A stretch of 64,000 bases of DNA from a phage. How positions within the stretch are numbered: the first letter of the stretch is position 1; each line of letters starts with the position of its first letter. Positions 18,613-58,222 of the stretch are shown one piece after another. The notes beneath the pieces were generated by a model, which was not told where the DNA came from, searched no databases, and was given only the letters and a program-made list of their open reading frames with translations. The stretch lies in sequence record PZ168832.1. The stretch is one strand, 5' to 3'. The position numbers and the translations under genes were made by a program.

Positions 18613-18640
18613 ATTATAATATAGTGTAGAAAAAAGTAAA
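18613..18640 (-). promoter_or_regulatory. Cassette promoter P1 (sigma70-like)
   Basis: On minus strand TTTACT, 16-nt spacer, TATAAT, followed by a conserved TATCGGGACGGG block. Confidence 0.5.
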
Positions 18641-18684: not shown

Positions 18685-18712
18685 TTTACTTCTTCGTACA
18701 CTCGCGTATACT
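18685..18712 (+). promoter_or_regulatory. Cassette promoter P2 (sigma70-like)
   Basis: TTTACT (18685-18690), 16-nt spacer, TATACT (18707-18712), then conserved GTTTATATCGAGACGG. Confidence 0.5.
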
Positions 18713-19081: not shown

Positions 19082-19110
19082 TTTACTTATTCGTACACTA
19101 AGACTATAAT
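19082..19110 (+). promoter_or_regulatory. Cassette promoter P3 (sigma70-like)
   Basis: TTTACT (19082-19087), 17-nt spacer, TATAAT (19105-19110), then conserved GTTTATATCGAGAGGG. Confidence 0.55.
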
Positions 19111-21809: not shown

Positions 21810-21890
21810 AATACACCTCACTTGTTAACGTATAATGAGTATAACTTAATAGCCCATAAAGTAAAGGCGCTTTTCAGCGCCTTGAGTGAA

Positions 21891-24286: not shown

Positions 24287-24628
24287 TTAATTTCTTTTGA
24301 GAGGAATATGACGGTGGCTGCCATTATTTGGTTTAATAATGAGCATAAAAACGATTAGAAAGATGATGGCTGATATACTTAATTCAATCAGCGCGGCTTG
24401 AGATATGGATTGGTCTTCGTGATACTGCTTTTGCATTTCCGCTTTCTTCTGAGCGCAAACTTCAGGTGATATATAATCGCCTTTTGAGTTGCCATAATAA
24501 ATCTCGCCATTCTCAGAAATAAGTCTGCCGCAAATATCAGTTTCAGCCTTTGCGCTTGACATCATAATGACGGTGCCGATGATAGCGGCAATTGTCCAGA
24601 TTAGCAGTTGTGATAAAGTGTTGTTCAT
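24287..24628 (-). CDS. Membrane/secreted protein (N-terminal signal or anchor, C-terminal TM)
   Basis: AAAGAGG RBS then ATG at 24628; MNNTLSQLLIWTIAAIIGTVIMMSSAKA ... AALIELSISAIIFLIVFMLII. Confidence 0.45.
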   Translation of the reverse strand: MNNTLSQLLIWTIAAIIGTVIMMSSAKAETDICGRLISENGEIYYGNSKGDYISPEVCAQKKAEMQKQYHEDQSISQAALIELSISAIIFLIVFMLIIKPNNGSHRHIPLKRN

Positions 24629-25058: not shown

Positions 25059-25269
25059 TTTCTTTCCACTCCACAAATGTGCTGCCACTTGTTTCTCTAT
25101 TTAGCAGGTATCTGCCGCGCATTCCATGAAGGCTGAATTCAACCGTCGATGGATTAGATTTTGAAAGCCACATCGCTTGACCGTCGAATGGTCCGCCAAC
25201 GCATGTGTATTTGGCTTTTGGCTCACTCCTTTTGGGCCGTTTTGCCCGCTCTTTGATTGATAGTCTCAT
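25048..25269 (-). CDS. Hypothetical basic protein
   Basis: 73-aa ORF with ATG. Confidence 0.4.
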   Translation of the reverse strand: MRLSIKERAKRPKRSEPKAKYTCVGGPFDGQAMWLSKSNPSTVEFSLHGMRGRYLLNRETSGSTFVEWKENGK

Positions 25270-25484
25270 CAGTCTTCACCTTGAGATTCAAGACAAGTAA
25301 GAACAAGCCATGTCATCGGAAGAATCAAAACCAGAGAAATAAGGGACCAGATGGACCAGCACAAGATGACAGACTTGAATGTGTGAACGTCGCCAAACGC
25401 AGCAGTGAAACAAAATCCCATCACGAAAGCAAGCGCGGTGGAGTGGTTATCAATGGCTTTGATGGCACGGTCGATGAGTTTCAT
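25269..25484 (-). CDS. Two-TM small membrane protein (holin-like candidate)
   Basis: GGAGG RBS 5 nt before ATG; two hydrophobic segments TALAFVMGFCFTAAFG and VILCWSIWSLISLVLILPMTWLVLTCL. Confidence 0.45.
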   Translation of the reverse strand: MKLIDRAIKAIDNHSTALAFVMGFCFTAAFGDVHTFKSVILCWSIWSLISLVLILPMTWLVLTCLESQGED

Positions 25485-51171: not shown

Positions 51172-52959
51172 ATGCCAACACTTATTAACAGACCTTTCGC
51201 GCAAAGCGGTGATGTATCCGTGGTGCCGGATGCAAGCCCAAGTGGTTATGTGAACTTCCAGCGCGGATACACCCCTGACTATGCGCTTGCTCTGGCGGCT
51301 GGAAACGTCTCCGCGAAAGCTGTTGAGCGCGAATCGATGAACTGGTTGTTGAATCTGATTACAGACAACCTTATGTTTATTCAAGATCATGGCGCTCAAC
51401 AATATTTCTCTTCTGACTTGAAGCCGGATGGATACCCGAAAAACGCCATCGTAGTAAGCAACTCTGGAACTCCTTCAGCGCCTGAATGGCGCATTTTCCA
51501 GAGCGTAGTTGACGGAAACACAAGCGCCGTCCCGGCCAACGGAGAAACGGAATCTTGGCAGGAATTAACACTGCCCAGCGAAGCGCGAAAATACATTCCT
51601 ATGCCTGCTGGCGGCGATGCGCAAAACCCGTATTTTGTTCGCGGATTGATTTCAAGTGTTGTTGACTTTGACAATATCACGACTTCCACAACTATCGTGA
51701 TTCAATCCGATGCCGTTGCCGCTCTGTGCTCTAACATACCGAATGCTGTTGGCGCAACGAAGGTTGCAGGTCGGCTGCAGGTATGCGCTTGGCAGGTCGA
51801 TGAACAAACCTTTGCCTTGCAGCAATATACATCAATGAATGGCTATTTGTTTACTCGCTCTTATACTTCTGGTGCTTGGAGTGCTTGGATTCAAAATGCC
51901 ACTGTTCAAGACGTTCAAATTGGAACGCCGAATCTTGCATCAGGTAAAGGAGCGCAAGACATAATCCTTACCGTCCCAGCAGGTTATTCATGGCCTCCGT
52001 CAGCAGGTAGTCGCCTGACAATCGTCAATGATGTGACGACTACCGGACCTGTCACTGTGACCATTGGTGTAAACAAAGTTGCCGTTCTTGGATTCGACGG
52101 CAGCGAGTTGCCAGCTGGCGCTATCGTAGGCCTGTTGCCATTCACCATCATCTATGACGGCACTGTTTGGCGTCTTCTTCAGGCATTCGGCGCGGCGCAA
52201 ATCGGCGTTGATGCTACGGAGCCGCAGCAGTTTGTTACCAAAAGGCAACTTGACGCGCTTGCCGCGAAGTTGATTACCATGGGTGACGTATTCGAAGTCG
52301 GTGAGACTCGATTCCTTACCAACGGGACCAACCCGAATACTAAACTGGGCGCTTACGGCCAGGTATGGACACGACTGCCTGATAACATGGTGATTCGCAC
52401 GTCCGGCGCTGCGCGAAACGGTCTTGATACAGGCGGAGCAGACTCTGTTACTCTCACCGCCGCCATGCTTCCTCTCCATAATCACAGCGTGAACATTACC
52501 ACGCGACAAAGTGGTCCATGGTCCAATACCACTGGAGACGCAGGCAACCATAACCACACAGGCGATACCAGTCAAAACGGCGCTCACGTGCACGGAATGG
52601 ACACGGCAGGCAACCACCATCATGACAGTAGCTGGGGTGAAGCGAATACGAACGATGCACGATACGGCGTTTATGATGGAACACACAACAACTTCGGAAG
52701 TCGAAAGGGCGGCGACTGGGACAACTACAAATACAACACTTCAACCAACGGCAACCACGTCCATAATATTCAGTCGTCTGGATCACACACCCATGGGTTG
52801 AATATAAATTACGCTGGCAATCACAGCCATAGCTATACCCTTCCCGCTCACACTCACGATGTGGTCGGTAACACTGGCAACGCAGGGCAGTCCGTTCCAA
52901 CGGCTGTTTCAACCCTGCCGCGATATGTCGTCTTGAACGGCTGGTACAGAAGCGCATAA
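51172..52959 (+). CDS. Tail fibre protein with His-x-His repeat tip
   Basis: GAGGA RBS then ATG at 51172; C-terminal region has seven HxH motifs (NHNH, AHVH, NHHH, NHVH, SHTH, NHSH, AHTH). Confidence 0.65.
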   Translation: MPTLINRPFAQSGDVSVVPDASPSGYVNFQRGYTPDYALALAAGNVSAKAVERESMNWLLNLITDNLMFIQDHGAQQYFSSDLKPDGYPKNAIVVSNSGTPSAPEWRIFQSVVDGNTSAVPANGETESWQELTLPSEARKYIPMPAGGDAQNPYFVRGLISSVVDFDNITTSTTIVIQSDAVAALCSNIPNAVGATKVAGRLQVCAWQVDEQTFALQQYTSMNGYLFTRSYTSGAWSAWIQNATVQDVQIGTPNLASGKGAQDIILTVPAGYSWPPSAGSRLTIVNDVTTTGPVTVTIGVNKVAVLGFDGSELPAGAIVGLLPFTIIYDGTVWRLLQAFGAAQIGVDATEPQQFVTKRQLDALAAKLITMGDVFEVGETRFLTNGTNPNTKLGAYGQVWTRLPDNMVIRTSGAARNGLDTGGADSVTLTAAMLPLHNHSVNITTRQSGPWSNTTGDAGNHNHTGDTSQNGAHVHGMDTAGNHHHDSSWGEANTNDARYGVYDGTHNNFGSRKGGDWDNYKYNTSTNGNHVHNIQSSGSHTHGLNINYAGNHSHSYTLPAHTHDVVGNTGNAGQSVPTAVSTLPRYVVLNGWYRSA

Positions 52960-52967
52960 GGTGATTT

Positions 52968-53612
52968 ATGATTAATGCAAACGTAATATCTAAAGGGACC
53001 GGATGCAGCATGGATGTCGCAGAGAAATGGGTGGACCCTTTCAAGCAGGCTTGTGAGCACTACGGAATCAAAAGCAAGAATGCCATCGCGGCATTCCTTG
53101 CAAACGTAGGAGTAGAGACAGGCAGCTTGAGAACATTTGTGGAAAATCTCAACTACTCTGCACAGGGTCTTGCCAACACGTGGCCTAGCCGTTACAGCGT
53201 CAGCGGTCGTTTCGGTGGCGCACCAAACTCCTTGGCGTTGTCGATTGCCCGTAAACCAATGGAAATCGCCAATAATACATATGCAAACCGAATGGGAAAT
53301 GGTTCGGTAGCATCTGGCGACGGTTGGAAGTACCGTGGCCGTGGTGCCATTCAGCTGACTGGAAAGGACAACTATGCAGAGTATTCAAAGCAATCAGGGT
53401 ATGACGCCTTGAATAACCCTGACATTTTGACTGAGCCGAAATACATCGCTGACAGCGCGGCGTGGTTCTTCAAGAACAGCGGTTGCATTCCACTTGCCGA
53501 TGCGGGTGCATTTGATTCGACCGTGAAGCGGATTAACGGGGCCGCGCCGAATACGGCTAACCATGGGGATTTGCGACGGAAGCGTTACAAGGATGCACTA
53601 GCAGTTATGTAA
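52968..53612 (+). CDS. Endolysin, glycoside hydrolase family 19 (chitinase-like)
   Basis: AAFLANVGVETGSL and YRGRGAIQLTGKDNY match GH19 catalytic signatures; no signal peptide or TM. Confidence 0.8.
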   Translation: MINANVISKGTGCSMDVAEKWVDPFKQACEHYGIKSKNAIAAFLANVGVETGSLRTFVENLNYSAQGLANTWPSRYSVSGRFGGAPNSLALSIARKPMEIANNTYANRMGNGSVASGDGWKYRGRGAIQLTGKDNYAEYSKQSGYDALNNPDILTEPKYIADSAAWFFKNSGCIPLADAGAFDSTVKRINGAAPNTANHGDLRRKRYKDALAVM

Positions 53613-53615
53613 GAA

Positions 53616-53635
53616 AAAGGCCCATATGGGCCTTT
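53616..53635. terminator. Bidirectional rho-independent terminator between convergent units
   Basis: 20-bp perfect palindrome AAAGGCCCATATGGGCCTTT flanked by T-rich sequence on both strands. Confidence 0.55.
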
Positions 53636-53637
53636 GT

Positions 53638-53850
53638 TTATTTCACGGCTTCAACCTGGACTGGCGGCGCGGAACTTGTATCAATGTCTGGCAAGTCGAA
53701 GTAATACCCCGCCATGCCAATCACGCCAACAATCGCGGCCCGTGCCACCTTGTTGCTAATTGACTCCCCAATAAGCTTTACCAACAGGGACAAGATTTGA
53801 GACGTCAAAGCCTTTTTCAGCCTTTTGTTTTCTTCCAAATCTTTCTGCAT
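53638..53850 (-). CDS. Small single-TM membrane protein
   Basis: GGTGG RBS then ATG at 53850; hydrophobic VARAAIVGVIGMAGYYF. Confidence 0.4.
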   Translation of the reverse strand: MQKDLEENKRLKKALTSQILSLLVKLIGESISNKVARAAIVGVIGMAGYYFDLPDIDTSSAPPVQVEAVK

Positions 53851-53864
53851 AACTACCACCCATG

Positions 53865-54407
53865 TCAACGCACATCCTGTGTCTTAACATTACCTGAAGC
53901 ATCTCTTAAGGGCAGTGGATAGTAGGCCATTTGGTAGTCTGATACGCCTTCAACATGATAAAACACGATTACGTCTTTGCTGTTGATGAGCATGTTAACG
54001 ACATCTGATTTATCTTCTGGAGTGAGTATGAGTGCGCCGCCTGTCCTGCTGTCTACTGCAACAGGGTATGTCTTGTCGACAAGGCCGCTGTCCAATGTAT
54101 TATACCTGACAACGATTTCAGCGGCATCAACTTTTGCAATTGACATTCCGAACACAAACGACACGACTTGGCGACCGCGATCATTCATTACGCACATCTT
54201 TTCCTTATCAAACCTTTCCTTTATCACATCATATTTGTTCCAGCAAAATTCGAACGATTGGCCGTTGTTAAAATATCTCGTTAACACTTTGGCATTACTA
54301 TTTGGCGGCGTAAACATACTTTCAGCCGCTGCACTTTTGGTGAAGAACAAGACTGTCAGCATAGCCATGATGGTGATCAAAACAATCTTTAAAGTTTTCG
54401 ATTTCAT
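53865..54407 (-). CDS. Secreted / periplasmic protein, unknown function
   Basis: N-terminal MKSKTLKIVLITIMAMLTVLFFTKSAAA; AAAGGTG RBS. Confidence 0.5.
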   Translation of the reverse strand: MKSKTLKIVLITIMAMLTVLFFTKSAAAESMFTPPNSNAKVLTRYFNNGQSFEFCWNKYDVIKERFDKEKMCVMNDRGRQVVSFVFGMSIAKVDAAEIVVRYNTLDSGLVDKTYPVAVDSRTGGALILTPEDKSDVVNMLINSKDVIVFYHVEGVSDYQMAYYPLPLRDASGNVKTQDVR

Positions 54408-54438
54408 TATAATTCACCTTTTGATTACGAATATTAAT

Positions 54439-54466
54439 AGTATAGGCCGAAGGTTTTGAAAGTAAA
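54439..54466 (-). promoter_or_regulatory. Sigma70-like promoter for the 54407-53638 two-gene unit
   Basis: On minus strand TTTACT, 16-nt spacer, TATACT. Confidence 0.3.
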
Positions 54467-54480
54467 TAAGGCGAAAGGTA

Positions 54481-54511
54481 AATAAAAGAAAAGCCGGAGA
54501 TTTCCGGCTTT
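54481..54511 (-). terminator. Rho-independent terminator after the ligase gene
   Basis: Stem AAAGCCGG/CCGGCTTT, 6-nt loop, followed on the minus strand by a T-rich tract. Confidence 0.5.
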
Positions 54512-54583
54512 ATGTATACACTGTATATTAAATTCTATAAAACGACGCGATAGATTATCCGCACCAATTATTTATCTAGTGTC

Positions 54584-55546
54584 TTAAAAATACTCCATAT
54601 CGGTAATATCACGGAAGCATTTATACAAAGCAGAGCGCGGCACATCAACGATGCCAAAGTTAAAGAATTTATACGTTAGATATTTATCGCGATAGTTCTC
54701 GCGATTCTCCCAAAGCATTTTTCTCTCTGCCATAGGCATTGAACCAGCGGATACGCGGAAAGGAATCATTTCACCTTTTTCATCCACATATTTTGGATTG
54801 ACGACTACGAATGAGCCAAGGTGTCCTTTCGCAACTAAACCTTCAGCCTCTTTTGAACGCTTGGTGCGACCCAATTCGTCAATGAATGCTTCGTTGTTGT
54901 TCTCCATCATCTCAACGAAGTCTATGATCAATCCTTCTTCATCCGTCCACGGCTTGTCCTTCCACACATCACGTGACTTCGGCGTCGCGCGGCCATGCTT
55001 GTATTTGCCCGTCCAAGACTTGCCATACAAGCCTTCATATCCAAGCTGGTCTGCTTCGATTTGCATCGCCGCGTACTGTTCCATATTTTCGATGTTTCGA
55101 TATTCGAGAGCGCGAAGGAATGGGCGTCGACCATGGTTGATGAGATGTTGATTAACTTCAGCAACTCTGGCTCGATAGTTTGCATAACGCTTTTCAAAAG
55201 GCAGATCAGGGTCGCTGAAGTCATCAAACACCCACCATGTAAAGTTAGTTATTGCGTCAGTATTCATGCATGCAGTATAGGCCTGTTGCATTACGTTCTT
55301 ATCATTTGGATTGCCGTCGATTAGCTCTCCATCAAGTCCGTGAATTAGTTCACCCAAAAAGAGGAACTCTTTTTTGATTTGAACGTTGCGCAACGGCATG
55401 CCGGAAGTGCCCATTGGCAAGTTGTCATACGCCATTGCACGTATGCCATCGACCTTGAATGACAGTCCGCAAGGCAGCGGCACGTCTTCGCCGCGCTCGA
55501 TAATCTGCTTACGTTGGCAACCCTTCATTGGTTTTAATGCTGTCAT
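54584..55546 (-). CDS. ATP-dependent DNA ligase
   Basis: Nucleotidyltransferase motif I KVDGIR (KxDG); 320 aa, similar in size to small phage ligases. Confidence 0.7.
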   Translation of the reverse strand: MTALKPMKGCQRKQIIERGEDVPLPCGLSFKVDGIRAMAYDNLPMGTSGMPLRNVQIKKEFLFLGELIHGLDGELIDGNPNDKNVMQQAYTACMNTDAITNFTWWVFDDFSDPDLPFEKRYANYRARVAEVNQHLINHGRRPFLRALEYRNIENMEQYAAMQIEADQLGYEGLYGKSWTGKYKHGRATPKSRDVWKDKPWTDEEGLIIDFVEMMENNNEAFIDELGRTKRSKEAEGLVAKGHLGSFVVVNPKYVDEKGEMIPFRVSAGSMPMAERKMLWENRENYRDKYLTYKFFNFGIVDVPRSALYKCFRDITDMEYF

Positions 55547-55548
55547 AA

Positions 55549-56172
55549 TTATTGTCCTGTAACTTCTCTGATCACACGGTCTTCAAGTTCCAGCTTCTTT
55601 ACCATTTTGCAGGAGTGCTCATAAGCTGGATCAGTCGATTTGATAAACGTGCCGTTGTACATGACACCTTTGCGGTCCTTGATGTCTTCGTAGGCCGCTT
55701 GCGCACAGTCGGATAATCGAAGGCCATAATCATGAGCTACGCCGGAAAGGTAATCGACTGCGGCCATGATAGTGACGTCAATATCCATGGCCTGATTCTT
55801 GGCAATAGCATCACCAAGTCGTCCAAGGGTCTTTGCCAGGCGAAGGATAAATGAATGAGGGTGAGCGCCCTTATCAGCGCAACCGCCGCCATTAATGTTT
55901 TCGATTTCAGTACCGTTTTGCGCTGCCAGGATGGCCAACACAACAAGGCAATCGCCGATGTCGTCCTTAATTGCCGCCTGCAAGTCACAGATGGCCTGCT
56001 CTGTATATCCAATTTCAGGGTCAAAGAACACAAGGTCATGGAGTTGATCAACGTGGTCGGTTAACTCCCCAAACTCGCTGATAAGCTTCGGATATTGGTC
56101 TTTAAGGTCGCAACCTTGGATGATGTTACGGTCAGAAGCCCACTGGCGAATGTTTGCATAAATCTGGTTCAT
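55549..56172 (-). CDS. MazG-like nucleoside triphosphate pyrophosphohydrolase
   Basis: EFGELTDHV and IGDCLVVLAILAAQNG fit the MazG helical EExxE / D motif pattern. Confidence 0.6.
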   Translation of the reverse strand: MNQIYANIRQWASDRNIIQGCDLKDQYPKLISEFGELTDHVDQLHDLVFFDPEIGYTEQAICDLQAAIKDDIGDCLVVLAILAAQNGTEIENINGGGCADKGAHPHSFILRLAKTLGRLGDAIAKNQAMDIDVTIMAAVDYLSGVAHDYGLRLSDCAQAAYEDIKDRKGVMYNGTFIKSTDPAYEHSCKMVKKLELEDRVIREVTGQ

Positions 56173-56687
56173 TTATTTTCCTTTGATGCATTTAATTGAT
56201 CGATTTTTATTTTAGCCTGATTATAAGTATCAATCAAGCTATTAACTTTCTCTTTTAATCGGTTTGTTTCTGCGGCGAACTGAACAAGAAATCTGACATC
56301 CTCTTCTGATAGTCCACAGTTTCCTTCTGGGATAGAGAGGCGTCCAGTGGTCGCAGAGTCGGGCACACTCCTGAGTAACTCACGGGAGCAGCTGAGTTGC
56401 TCGCGCAGCTTGATATTCCCAGACTTGTAACGAGCAATAGTGTCATCAGCAACCAGTTGCGCTTCCTGGCGACCCTTCTCATATGCCGATGCCGATTCAA
56501 CCTGTAAAGTTGCAATTTGCTCTTCGAGTGCATTTATCTTGTCCTTACGCTCATTAAGCGATGTCAGATATTGATTATCCTTGGCCAGTGATGCGTTGGT
56601 TTGCTGCAGGTCTTCAACGTATGATCCAGCGGCAAACGCACCAACAAGGGCCAGAATCTTCAGGAGCGGTACAATTCTTTCTATCAT
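56169..56687 (-). CDS. Inner-membrane spanin (Rz-like)
   Basis: N-terminal TM LLKILALVGAFAAGS, long coiled-coil region, embedded +1-frame lipoprotein gene; GGTG RBS. Confidence 0.6.
   Translation of the reverse strand: MIERIVPLLKILALVGAFAAGSYVEDLQQTNASLAKDNQYLTSLNERKDKINALEEQIATLQVESASAYEKGRQEAQLVADDTIARYKSGNIKLREQLSCSRELLRSVPDSATTGRLSIPEGNCGLSEEDVRFLVQFAAETNRLKEKVNSLIDTYNQAKIKIDQLNASKENK
56255..56482 (-). CDS. Outer-membrane lipoprotein spanin (Rz1-like), fully embedded in the Rz frame
   Basis: MRRVARKRNWLLMTLLLVTSLGISSC: positive n-region, hydrophobic core, lipobox ISSC; Pro-containing mature part. Start ambiguous (ATG at 56533, 56482, 56446). Confidence 0.5.
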   Translation of the reverse strand: MRRVARKRNWLLMTLLLVTSLGISSCASNSAAPVSYSGVCPTLRPLDASLSQKETVDYQKRMSDFLFSSPQKQTD

Positions 56688-57664: not shown

Positions 57665-58222
57665 TTACTTTTTGCTTTTAGGCAAGGTTATTTTAGCTTC
57701 TTTGTATTCAAAAACGCTAATATCTTCACTAACTGGATTGCCCGCTTCCAGCTGTTCTTTTACAAACGACTTCAGTGTAGCAGAATGAACGCCTTGTTTC
57801 AACGTGGCTTCAACACCATCTTCACGCAGCGCGGCAACAATCTCTTGCGCCTGTTCGATTTCTTCGCGACCGAACTCAGCCGTGACGCTGGACTTGATCA
57901 AGCCGCCGTAACCGTTGTTGACAAGCCAATCGAAAACTTTTAATTCGTTTTCTTTCTTGATTGAAGCGTTCACCTTGGACTCGACCTTGATTTTGGTCTT
58001 GTCCTCAAGCTTGATTTCGGACACGCCAAGCTCATCCATAACGCCAGGAAGCAGAACAGTTTTGATTTCACTGATGCGCTGCTTTTGCATATCAGCTTCA
58101 TCTTCAAGCTTTGTCAAAACTTCTTGTCGTTCTGCCAGTTCAGACACTAAGCGCGCAAGGCGCTCTTGAATGCTCTCAGGAGCAACCTGCGGCAAATCAT
58201 CTTCCCAATTAATATTGCTCAT
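57665..58222 (-). CDS. Hypothetical coiled-coil protein
   Basis: 185-aa ORF, ATGA overlap with the upstream gene. Confidence 0.5.
   Translation of the reverse strand: MSNINWEDDLPQVAPESIQERLARLVSELAERQEVLTKLEDEADMQKQRISEIKTVLLPGVMDELGVSEIKLEDKTKIKVESKVNASIKKENELKVFDWLVNNGYGGLIKSSVTAEFGREEIEQAQEIVAALREDGVEATLKQGVHSATLKSFVKEQLEAGNPVSEDISVFEYKEAKITLPKSKK

Follow-up and report, generated by a model that had tools for sequence, protein, structure and literature searches.

The window analyzed here is a stretch of 64,000 nucleotides from a phage (sequence record PZ168832.1), and this report concerns a two-gene unit on its minus strand, located next to the endolysin gene. The first gene of the unit, gpA (53865-54407, minus strand), codes for a 180-residue protein in which residues 1-28 (54324-54407) form a predicted cleavable signal peptide, leaving a mature part of 152 residues. 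After a gap of 14 nucleotides (nt) it is followed by gpB (53638-53850, minus strand), which codes for 70 residues when counted from its ATG and belongs to the PA1-LRP/phrog_5165 family. The region around the pair (52900-54700) showed 99.6% identity to Escherichia phage FEC19, a Wifcevirus, and 91-98% identity to 28 further Wifcevirus records. The genus Wifcevirus comprises myoviruses of Escherichia coli and Shigella that are distant kin of the Pseudomonas Pbunavirus (PB1-like) group. In all annotated Wifcevirus records listed, gpA and gpB are labeled “hypothetical protein”, and the vB_Eco4M-7 proteomics and synthetic-phage papers cover neither of them. An Rfam scan of 53400-54800 returned nothing real.

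Both genes are preceded by recognizable translation signals. The ribosome-binding site (RBS) of gpA, AAAAGGTG (54415-54422, minus strand), was read from the sequence 7 nt 5′ of the ATG, forms a conserved column block in relatives and is annotated at the same place in phage Mansfield. For gpB, a Shine-Dalgarno-like GGGTGGT was read at 53855-53861 (minus strand), 4 nt 5′ of the ATG, and an RBS is annotated at this site in Mansfield as well. The open reading frame (ORF) finder offered an alternative gpB start, a TTG at 53868 giving 76 residues, which overlaps the gpA stop and is unneeded. A dual-start motif of the antiholin type was also considered for gpB and rejected: the TTG extension, MTWVVV, is the Shine-Dalgarno sequence read as codons and adds no charge. 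Compared with Mansfield, the ratio of non-synonymous to synonymous substitution rates (dN/dS) is 0.14 for gpA, 0 for gpB (eight synonymous and no non-synonymous changes) and 0.07 for the endolysin. Both gpA and gpB are under purifying selection and are real genes. The GC content of gpA is 42.4%, compared to 46.3% for the window.

A sigma70-like promoter, TTTACT-16-TATACT with 9/12 matches, is located upstream of the pair at 54439-54466 on the minus strand. By itself the promoter scan is weak evidence, with three sites found versus 6.9 in shuffled sequences. The promoter was accepted because the block of terminator, −35, −10 and RBS is kept in Mansfield and in three uncultured relatives (L006, L007 and L008), though the proteins of these relatives are only 40-60% identical, because the motif TTTACW-N15-18-TAWAMT is enriched in the window (five occurrences versus 0.37 expected), and because the Pbunavirus ortholog of gpB has been mapped as a stand-alone unit. 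The transcription unit is bounded on both sides. The intrinsic terminator after the DNA ligase gene (54490-54511, minus strand) consists of a 9-bp stem with five GC pairs and a T-tract, folds at −13.6 kcal/mol (z −4.6), is conserved in relatives and is annotated as a terminator in Mansfield and WFC; judged by sequence, it insulates the gpA-gpB unit from the replication operon. At the other end, inside the 25 nt separating the endolysin stop from the gpB stop, a perfect 20-nt palindrome, AAAGGCCCATATGGGCCTTT (53616-53635, both strands), provides a bidirectional terminator common to gpB and the convergent endolysin gene. It folds at −13.2 and −14.7 kcal/mol on its two strands and is annotated as a terminator on both strands in Mansfield, PB1 and 14-1. 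Together, the three hairpins (the ligase terminator and the palindrome on each strand) gave fold z values of −3.0 to −4.6. An earlier note, made from the bare sequence, had described the unit as carrying its own sigma70-like promoter, insulated by a terminator from the ligase gene and converging on the endolysin gene at a palindromic terminator, and the conserved block, the motif enrichment, the mapped ortholog and the two terminators bear out that description.

The intergenic region before gpA (54408-54583) is AT-rich, with 31.8% GC compared to 46.3% for the window. It contains a second, weaker hairpin (54566-54543) and carries TTATTTAC twice, flanking the terminator tail and the −35 element. 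The remaining TTTACW-N15-18-TAWAMT sites of the window, at 18613-18640 (minus), 18685-18712 (plus), 19082-19110 (plus) and 21838-21865 (minus), include a divergent back-to-back pair near 18.65 kb, and all four are probably promoters used by the host RNA polymerase.

In order to place gpB within a family, its sequence was searched against profiles and phage genomes. It matched the phrog_5165 profile with an E value of 1.9e-8, the same profile that PB1 gp49 matches with 1.4e-54. It also showed 54% identity over the conserved core (BLASTP E 2e-13; tblastn E 2.7e-14) to PA1-LRP, the “lysis-related protein” encoded by ORF13 of Pantoea phage PA1 (Tian et al. 2024, PMC11538084), whose 73-residue sequence was obtained by translating Table S2 of that paper. 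A tblastn search with gpB identified homologs in 333 phage records, 289 of them Pseudomonas phages, and those listed were Pbunavirus-like. The ortholog of Pbunavirus 14-1 was found with an E value of 7.5e-9, and the identity of 14-1 gp48 as this ortholog was verified. By homology, gpB joins the recently described LRP family as a new member. Searches of Pfam, NCBIfam, PADLOC and PDB sequences gave no match for gpB.

Alignment of nine orthologs, from five genera plus three uncultured phages, showed a common layout for gpB, composed of a variable basic N-terminus, an amphipathic helix, a semi-hydrophobic helix of 14-16 residues and a tail that is variable, acidic and rich in Pro. The window protein has ILSLLVKLIGES as its amphipathic helix and AAIVGVIGMAGYYF as its short hydrophobic helix, the latter so delimited (R-AAIVGVIGMAGYYF-D) that the hydrophobic run is only about 14-15 residues long. 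The amphipathic helix follows the motif L-(I/V)-G-E-(S/T/A)-(V/I)-(K/S)-x-(K/R)-x-x-R, and G28, E29 and R37 are invariant across the aligned orthologs. Net charge ranges from +4 to +9 N-terminal to the hydrophobic helix and from −1 to −5 in the tail, a distribution that agrees with an N-in/C-out orientation, provided that the protein inserts into a membrane in the first place. Counting from the invariant Arg, positions 5, 8/9 and 11/12 of the helix are taken by small or polar residues in most orthologs, a pattern that is less distinct in Xanthomonas phage FoX6, and the helix closes with an aromatic belt followed by Asp or Pro, as read from the alignment. These small and polar residues would form a one-sided stripe, similar to helix-packing or pore-lining segments. 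A spanin assignment for gpB was rejected on the grounds that the protein has no periplasmic coiled coil.

Functional data on this family come from PA1. Over-expression of PA1-LRP alone in E. coli lowered the optical density by 13-20% and increased β-galactosidase leakage and cell death, and a Lys-LRP fusion with the homologous GH19 endolysin was far more lethal (PMC11538084). The hydrophobic peptide of PA1-LRP by itself, fused to the endolysin, sufficed for the effect, and PA1-Lys expressed alone did not lyse the cells (PMC11538084). These observations suggest membrane activity of the PA1 protein; they are not a holin assay. The same paper names another protein as the sole carrier of a transmembrane domain (TMD) among 20 neighbors, and the gpA-like gene upstream of PA1-LRP was neither noticed nor tested there (PMC11538084). 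Regarding the taxonomy of PA1, it is placed in the Chaseviridae in PMC11538084 and in Kylevirus (PB1-like) by GenBank and by gene order. Additionally, transcription of a second ortholog has been mapped. By ONT-cappable-seq, 14-1 gp48 (TU021) is a stand-alone, monocistronic transcription unit with its own transcription start site, which the authors termed moron-like (Putzeys et al. 2024, PMC10914365).

The position of gpB is conserved too. In every lineage examined, namely Wifcevirus, the three uncultured relatives, Kylevirus, Myosmarvirus, Carpasinavirus and Pbunavirus, gpB adjoins the endolysin gene across a bidirectional terminator, and it has been retained beside endolysins of three unrelated types (GH19, lambda-R-like and GH108). 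In PB1 and 14-1 the 83-residue ortholog lies between the ligase-gene terminator and the bidirectional terminator common to the convergent endolysin; in the Pbunavirus loci examined gpB is present and gpA absent. Among the genomes examined, gpA-like genes never occur without gpB and are always directly 5′ of it with tight spacing, which by called coordinates is 0 nt in L006. The pair found in the window is also carried by L006, L007 and L008. In the Pantoea phages Kyle and PA1, a gpA homolog of 183-186 residues with 33% identity lies directly upstream of LRP (in PA1 it has 186 residues from the listed GTG and 183 from an ATG). Serratia phage MTx shows the order ligase, 76-residue ORF, 169-residue signal-peptide protein with two Cys, 69-residue gpB ortholog, terminator and convergent endolysin. 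In FoX6 (Carpasinavirus) a gpA-like domain stands behind a membrane anchor and linker, with a 60-residue gpB ortholog next to it. Genes of the same fold as gpA thus occupy the identical position in four genera, with sequences that have diverged to 12-33% identity. From this comparative gene order, the ancestral unit is composed of terminator, promoter, gpB and bidirectional terminator, with gpA placed between promoter and gpB in four genera.

What separates the gpA-like gene from the ligase terminator varies among these phages. This slot holds a 76-residue ORF in MTx (L012 5049-5279), a 42-residue ORF in Kyle (L009 3695-3823) and a 151-residue hydrophobic ORF in FoX6 (L013 2208-2663); it is empty in Wifcevirus, and in PB1, where gpA is absent, no ORF lies between the ligase gene and gpB.

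The N-terminus of gpA, MKSKTLKIVLITIMAMLTVLFFTKSAAA|ES, has a strong hydrophobic core with a Kyte-Doolittle mean of 2.87 over 15 residues. A hydrophobic N-terminus is present in all full-length members of the family and an A-x-A cleavage motif in most of them, and two Cys are near-invariant among the homologs. These sequence features indicate that gpA is an exported periplasmic protein whose predicted signal peptide is cleaved, in agreement with the N-terminal signal or anchor that the note had assigned to the 180-residue product. Assignments of gpA as a lipoprotein or spanin were rejected, there being no lipobox. A first indexed sequence search returned five proteins, and an exhaustive profile search of 1.8 billion representatives returned six members, one of which, P0011, a 1250-residue repeat protein, was taken as spurious. 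A profile built from diverse members identified 14 proteins. No match for gpA was found in Pfam, NCBIfam, PADLOC or PDB sequences.

Structure prediction gave a clearer assignment for gpA. With the full-length protein and five sequences, AlphaFold2 reached a predicted local distance difference test (pLDDT) score of 49, which is unusable. With the signal peptide removed and 11 sequences including divergent homologs, pLDDT rose to 91 with a predicted TM-score of 0.85. The model showed about ten strands and one helix, and placed the two Cys on neighboring strands of a hairpin, compatible with a disulfide. Foldseek against the PDB returned only meaningless TEAD matches. The structures that the model may resemble, Bartonella invasion-associated locus B (IalB, PDB 3dtd) and a protein of the Vibrio polar flagellar LPHT ring (8z5n_A), share 3-7% identity with gpA, and the IalB domain PF06776 was not matched in Pfam by any of ten gpA-family members even at E values up to 10. 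The resemblance to IalB is uninformative on the mechanism of gpA because the molecular function of IalB is itself unknown. Against BFVD, the best match was the 169-residue uncharacterized protein of MTx (E 3.7e-7, TM-score 0.66), and the fourth was a 253-residue protein of Xanthomonas phage Carpasina, equal in size to the syntenic protein of FoX6. On the basis of the model, mature gpA is most likely a periplasmic β-sandwich, with a possibly IalB-like fold, forming a small family of its own. The statement in the earlier note that no family could be recognized thus fails for gpB, which belongs with phrog_5165, PA1-LRP and 14-1 gp48, and is half right for gpA, with its own small family and possibly IalB-like fold.

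Natural variants bear on whether gpA is required. Three Wifcevirus contigs with a frameshifted gpA were identified (L016 and L017 1501-2044, L018 1501-1947; runs SRR23754829, SRR12159225 and SRR29321598). In two full-length contigs from different sequencing runs, an additional C in a C-run truncates gpA at 96 residues, and in the third an 8-bp tandem duplication, GACAGCAG, shifts the frame. A frameshift in a homopolymer may be an assembly error; the duplication is unlikely to be an artefact. All three contigs have an intact gpB, the pattern expected of a non-essential modulator, and gpA is probably dispensable as judged from these sequences.

The endolysin converging on the unit (52968-53612, plus strand) is the last gene of the tail operon and a soluble GH19 enzyme (PF00182, E 2.3e-7; phrog_181, E 1.9e-70) without a signal or signal-anchor-release (SAR) segment. 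As it has neither, and as PA1-Lys alone is not lytic, a membrane lesion is needed for lysis. The endolysin is of the GH19 type in the window, L008, Kyle and PA1, a lambda-R-like transglycosylase in L006 (6803-7255) and a GH108 enzyme with PG_binding_3 in L007 (8849-9400). Close relatives have exchanged the endolysin gene that closes the tail operon for unrelated enzymes in situ, with the neighboring genes unchanged.

Neither the complete Bas99 genome nor the part of Mansfield that was examined carries a holin annotation. For PB1-like phages, a 201-residue protein with three TMDs has been proposed as the holin (PMC3008698). Its match to Pfam GTA_holin_3TM is weak (E 0.018), and neither the window nor Bas99 contains a homolog of it. 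This protein, which has one Gly-rich TMD at its N-terminus, a coiled coil, and two further TMDs at its C-terminus, occupies the slot upstream of the MazG-like gene in PB1, 14-1, Kyle, PA1, MTx and L007 (L004 2564-3169, L007 5606-6211, L012 2550-3155 and L009 1445-2050). The same slot contains an embedded Rz/Rz1 spanin pair in Wifcevirus (56169-56687 and 56255-56533, both minus), a 173-175-residue gene in L006 and L008, and a lipobox lipoprotein in FoX6. Rz/Rz1 and the 201-residue protein never occur together in the genomes examined, which leaves Pbunavirus without recognized spanins and Wifcevirus without this proposed holin. The “PA1-LVP” sequence in Table S2 of PMC11538084 (L010) is composed of a three-TM ORF with its stop codon followed by the entire MazG-like ORF, and the negative Lys-LVP fusion result consequently says little on that holin candidate. 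Two labels found in Pbunavirus annotation were not used. The PHASTER “holin” (Epa13, L011 23568-24005) is a 145-residue protein with three TMDs, now hypothetical in RefSeq, and the Wifcevirus counterpart of the “u-spanin” (57665-58222, minus) is a DUF7307 (Pam3 gp33-like) protein showing no hydrophobic segment in the scan.

With an endolysin that needs a lesion, no annotated holin, and gpB always beside the endolysin, gpB is a reasonable candidate for the inner-membrane step, and hence for the lysis gene apparently absent from these phages. We tentatively propose that the pair is a separately transcribed, envelope-directed membrane module of the lysis step, in which gpB would be the effector and gpA a modulator in the periplasm, a reading that we regard as possible rather than probable. 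The conserved core of gpB would comprise a basic cytoplasmic N-terminus, a juxtamembrane amphipathic helix, a short striped helix and an acidic periplasmic tail. The protein would insert N-in/C-out, oligomerize and compromise the inner membrane, by which the soluble endolysin encoded across the common terminator would reach the wall; gpB could serve as the holin itself or as an accessory to another holin. gpA would be exported by Sec, lose its signal peptide and fold into a disulfide-bonded β-sandwich in the periplasm, where it may act as a dispensable partner that tunes gpB, and hence lysis timing, from the periplasmic side. The lysis link raised in the earlier note gains some support from the homology to PA1-LRP and its effects and from gpB abutting the endolysin even when the latter has been swapped. 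A specific role in lysis timing is something we infer, the published functional data being mild toxicity and a fusion construct.

Several observations weigh against this proposal. First, the membrane character of gpB is doubtful. Over 19 residues the Kyte-Doolittle mean of the window protein is 1.34 and the summed Hessa value about +7, which is marginal; by the same crude measure, lambda S105 scores +4.3 and S21 scores +1.0. The size given in the earlier note (70 residues) is correct, and the single TM segment that it assigned is insecure on account of these values and the 14-15-residue run. The helix of the Xanthomonas ortholog is less hydrophobic still (AALIGTIVATTQAVV), for PA1-LRP, TMHMM reported no more than a hydrophobic region spanning residues 40-60 (PMC11538084), no holin family was matched in Pfam, PHROGs or NCBIfam, and the tail is acidic, in contrast to the basic cytoplasmic C-termini of classical holins. 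Second, the PA1-LRP data are weak, consisting of mild toxicity under T7 over-expression and of a fusion instead of expression in trans, and a bacterial two-hybrid assay detected no Lys-LRP interaction (PMC11538084). Third, the unit is driven by a host-type promoter on the strand of the replication genes and is not co-transcribed with the endolysin, and adjacency of the two may merely reflect a rigid, collinear genome backbone. Contact between gpA and gpB, likewise, is what we infer. Finally, other holin candidates exist. Pbunavirus, Kylevirus and Myosmarvirus carry another plausible one in the three-TM protein, and Wifcevirus encodes two other small TMD proteins (24287-24628 and 25269-25484, both minus). 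One of the latter (113 residues) begins with a signal-like N-terminus, contains two Cys and carries a TMD and a basic tail at its C-terminal end, and the other has 71 residues and at least two TMDs; the two genes are genus-specific, have no family match and are clustered divergently from the terminase gene, upstream of a tail-fiber gene.

A rival reading, also raised in the earlier note, is superinfection exclusion or envelope protection. Here gpA and gpB, expressed from the host-type promoter, would act against later phages by hindering receptor access, the tail lysozyme or the entry of DNA, functionally resembling T4 Sp/Imm. We consider this a serious rival, though on balance unlikely. The sigma70-like promoter does not depend on the late operons, in 14-1 the ortholog forms an autonomous, moron-like unit of transcription (PMC10914365), and gpA is clearly periplasmic. 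Like exclusion genes, gpA is probably dispensable in sequenced genomes, and its presence in the Enterobacterales and Xanthomonas lineages and absence from Pbunavirus fit a function specific to the host envelope. However, gpB is far better conserved than exclusion genes usually are, with a dN/dS of 0 and about 290 Pbunavirus records, and the sole functional data on its family indicate membrane damage aiding the endolysin. No homology of gpA or gpB to known exclusion proteins (T4 Sp/Imm, T5 Llp, Cor and similar) was found, and gpA is without a lipobox.

An explanation that we find similarly doubtful is that gpA and gpB are backbone neighbors serving neither lysis nor exclusion. In that case gpB would be a small helical protein, either an effector of host physiology or a regulator acting through its very basic N-terminus, its toxicity on over-expression would be non-specific, and gpA would be an independently acquired periplasmic accessory gene in a permissive slot behind the promoter. 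The marginal transmembrane character of gpB and the lack of conserved hydrophobicity agree with this, as does a conserved core made up of the amphipathic helix, L-x-x-L-(I/V)-G-E-(S/T)-V-K-D-(K/R)-x-x-R. Mild toxicity is common for small hydrophobic peptides under T7 expression, relatives differ in what lies between the ligase gene and gpB, and the GC content of gpA is somewhat lower than that of the window. Nevertheless, gpA-like genes of the same fold at the same position in four genera argue for a retained functional pairing, not for repeated chance insertion; the spacing of the two genes is tight or overlapping, and the hydrophobic region of the PA1 protein alone potentiated the endolysin. 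The idea that the ORFs and signals are chance features with no functional unit can practically be dismissed, since the promoter scan failing to exceed shuffled sequences is outweighed by purifying selection, conservation across genera, a confident gpA fold, a conserved regulatory block and the mapped ortholog unit.

The lysis-module proposal also has a bolder form, which we regard as improbable. Here the role of the missing holin throughout the PB1-like supergroup (Pbunavirus, Wifcevirus, Kylevirus, Myosmarvirus and Carpasinavirus) would fall to the gpB family, as a new holin class with a single short helix bearing a stripe of small residues, a basic N-terminus and an acidic tail in the periplasm, transcribed convergently to the endolysin from its own host-type promoter. 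gpA would then be a new, IalB-fold periplasmic antiholin that provides lysis-timing control in the Enterobacterales and Xanthomonas lineages, analogous to T4 T/RI and evolutionarily unrelated to it.

The unit looks ordinary, yet it is relevant to a phage group of therapeutic importance whose holin is unassigned, and it is easily tested. The inner-membrane step of lysis is unassigned across this group, and the Pbunavirus “holin” is a guess without a homolog in Wifcevirus, whose members have been reported to replicate unusually fast. The toxicity of PA1-LRP, the “moron-like” TU021 of 14-1 and the hypothetical genes of Wifcevirus, seemingly unlinked in the literature, now belong to one family at one conserved position, and a previously unnoticed periplasmic partner with a confident fold accompanies it in four genera. 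Should gpB prove to be the lysis effector, it would open a new way to adjust when therapeutic phages lyse their hosts; otherwise, the module still ranks among the best-conserved unknown units of the group.

Among characterized systems, the S21 pinholin (68-71 residues) is similar in size to gpB, and both have a helix rich in Gly and small residues, with possible zipper packing. S21 has two genuine TMDs and a basic C-terminus, whereas gpB has at most one marginal TMD, an acidic tail and no family match. T4 holin T and RI provide a functional analogy, as a single-pass N-in/C-out effector with a dispensable secreted partner, the arrangement proposed for gpB and gpA. The large periplasmic domain of T contrasts with a tail of 17-38 residues in gpB, to which it has no sequence or fold relationship, and RI was not among the fold-search matches for gpA, with no sequence or fold relationship found. 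T4 Sp (spackle) and Imm offer a second functional analogy, being an early periplasmic protein and a small membrane protein of a virulent myovirus. Neither showed sequence or fold similarity to gpA or gpB, and sp and imm are not known to form an adjacent operon beside the endolysin.

Within the family, 14-1 gp48 and PB1 gp49 occupy the same slot as gpB, but as monocistronic genes without gpA, and their 83-residue products have a longer and more basic N-terminus. PA1-LRP is nearly equal to gpB in size (73 versus 70 residues) and occupies the equivalent position, convergent with the gene of a homologous GH19 endolysin; conservation between them does not extend to the basic stretch at the N-terminus or to the C-terminal tail. 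With regard to the linkage of holin and endolysin genes, gpB is always adjacent to the endolysin but convergent to it, in a separate unit behind a sigma70-like promoter.

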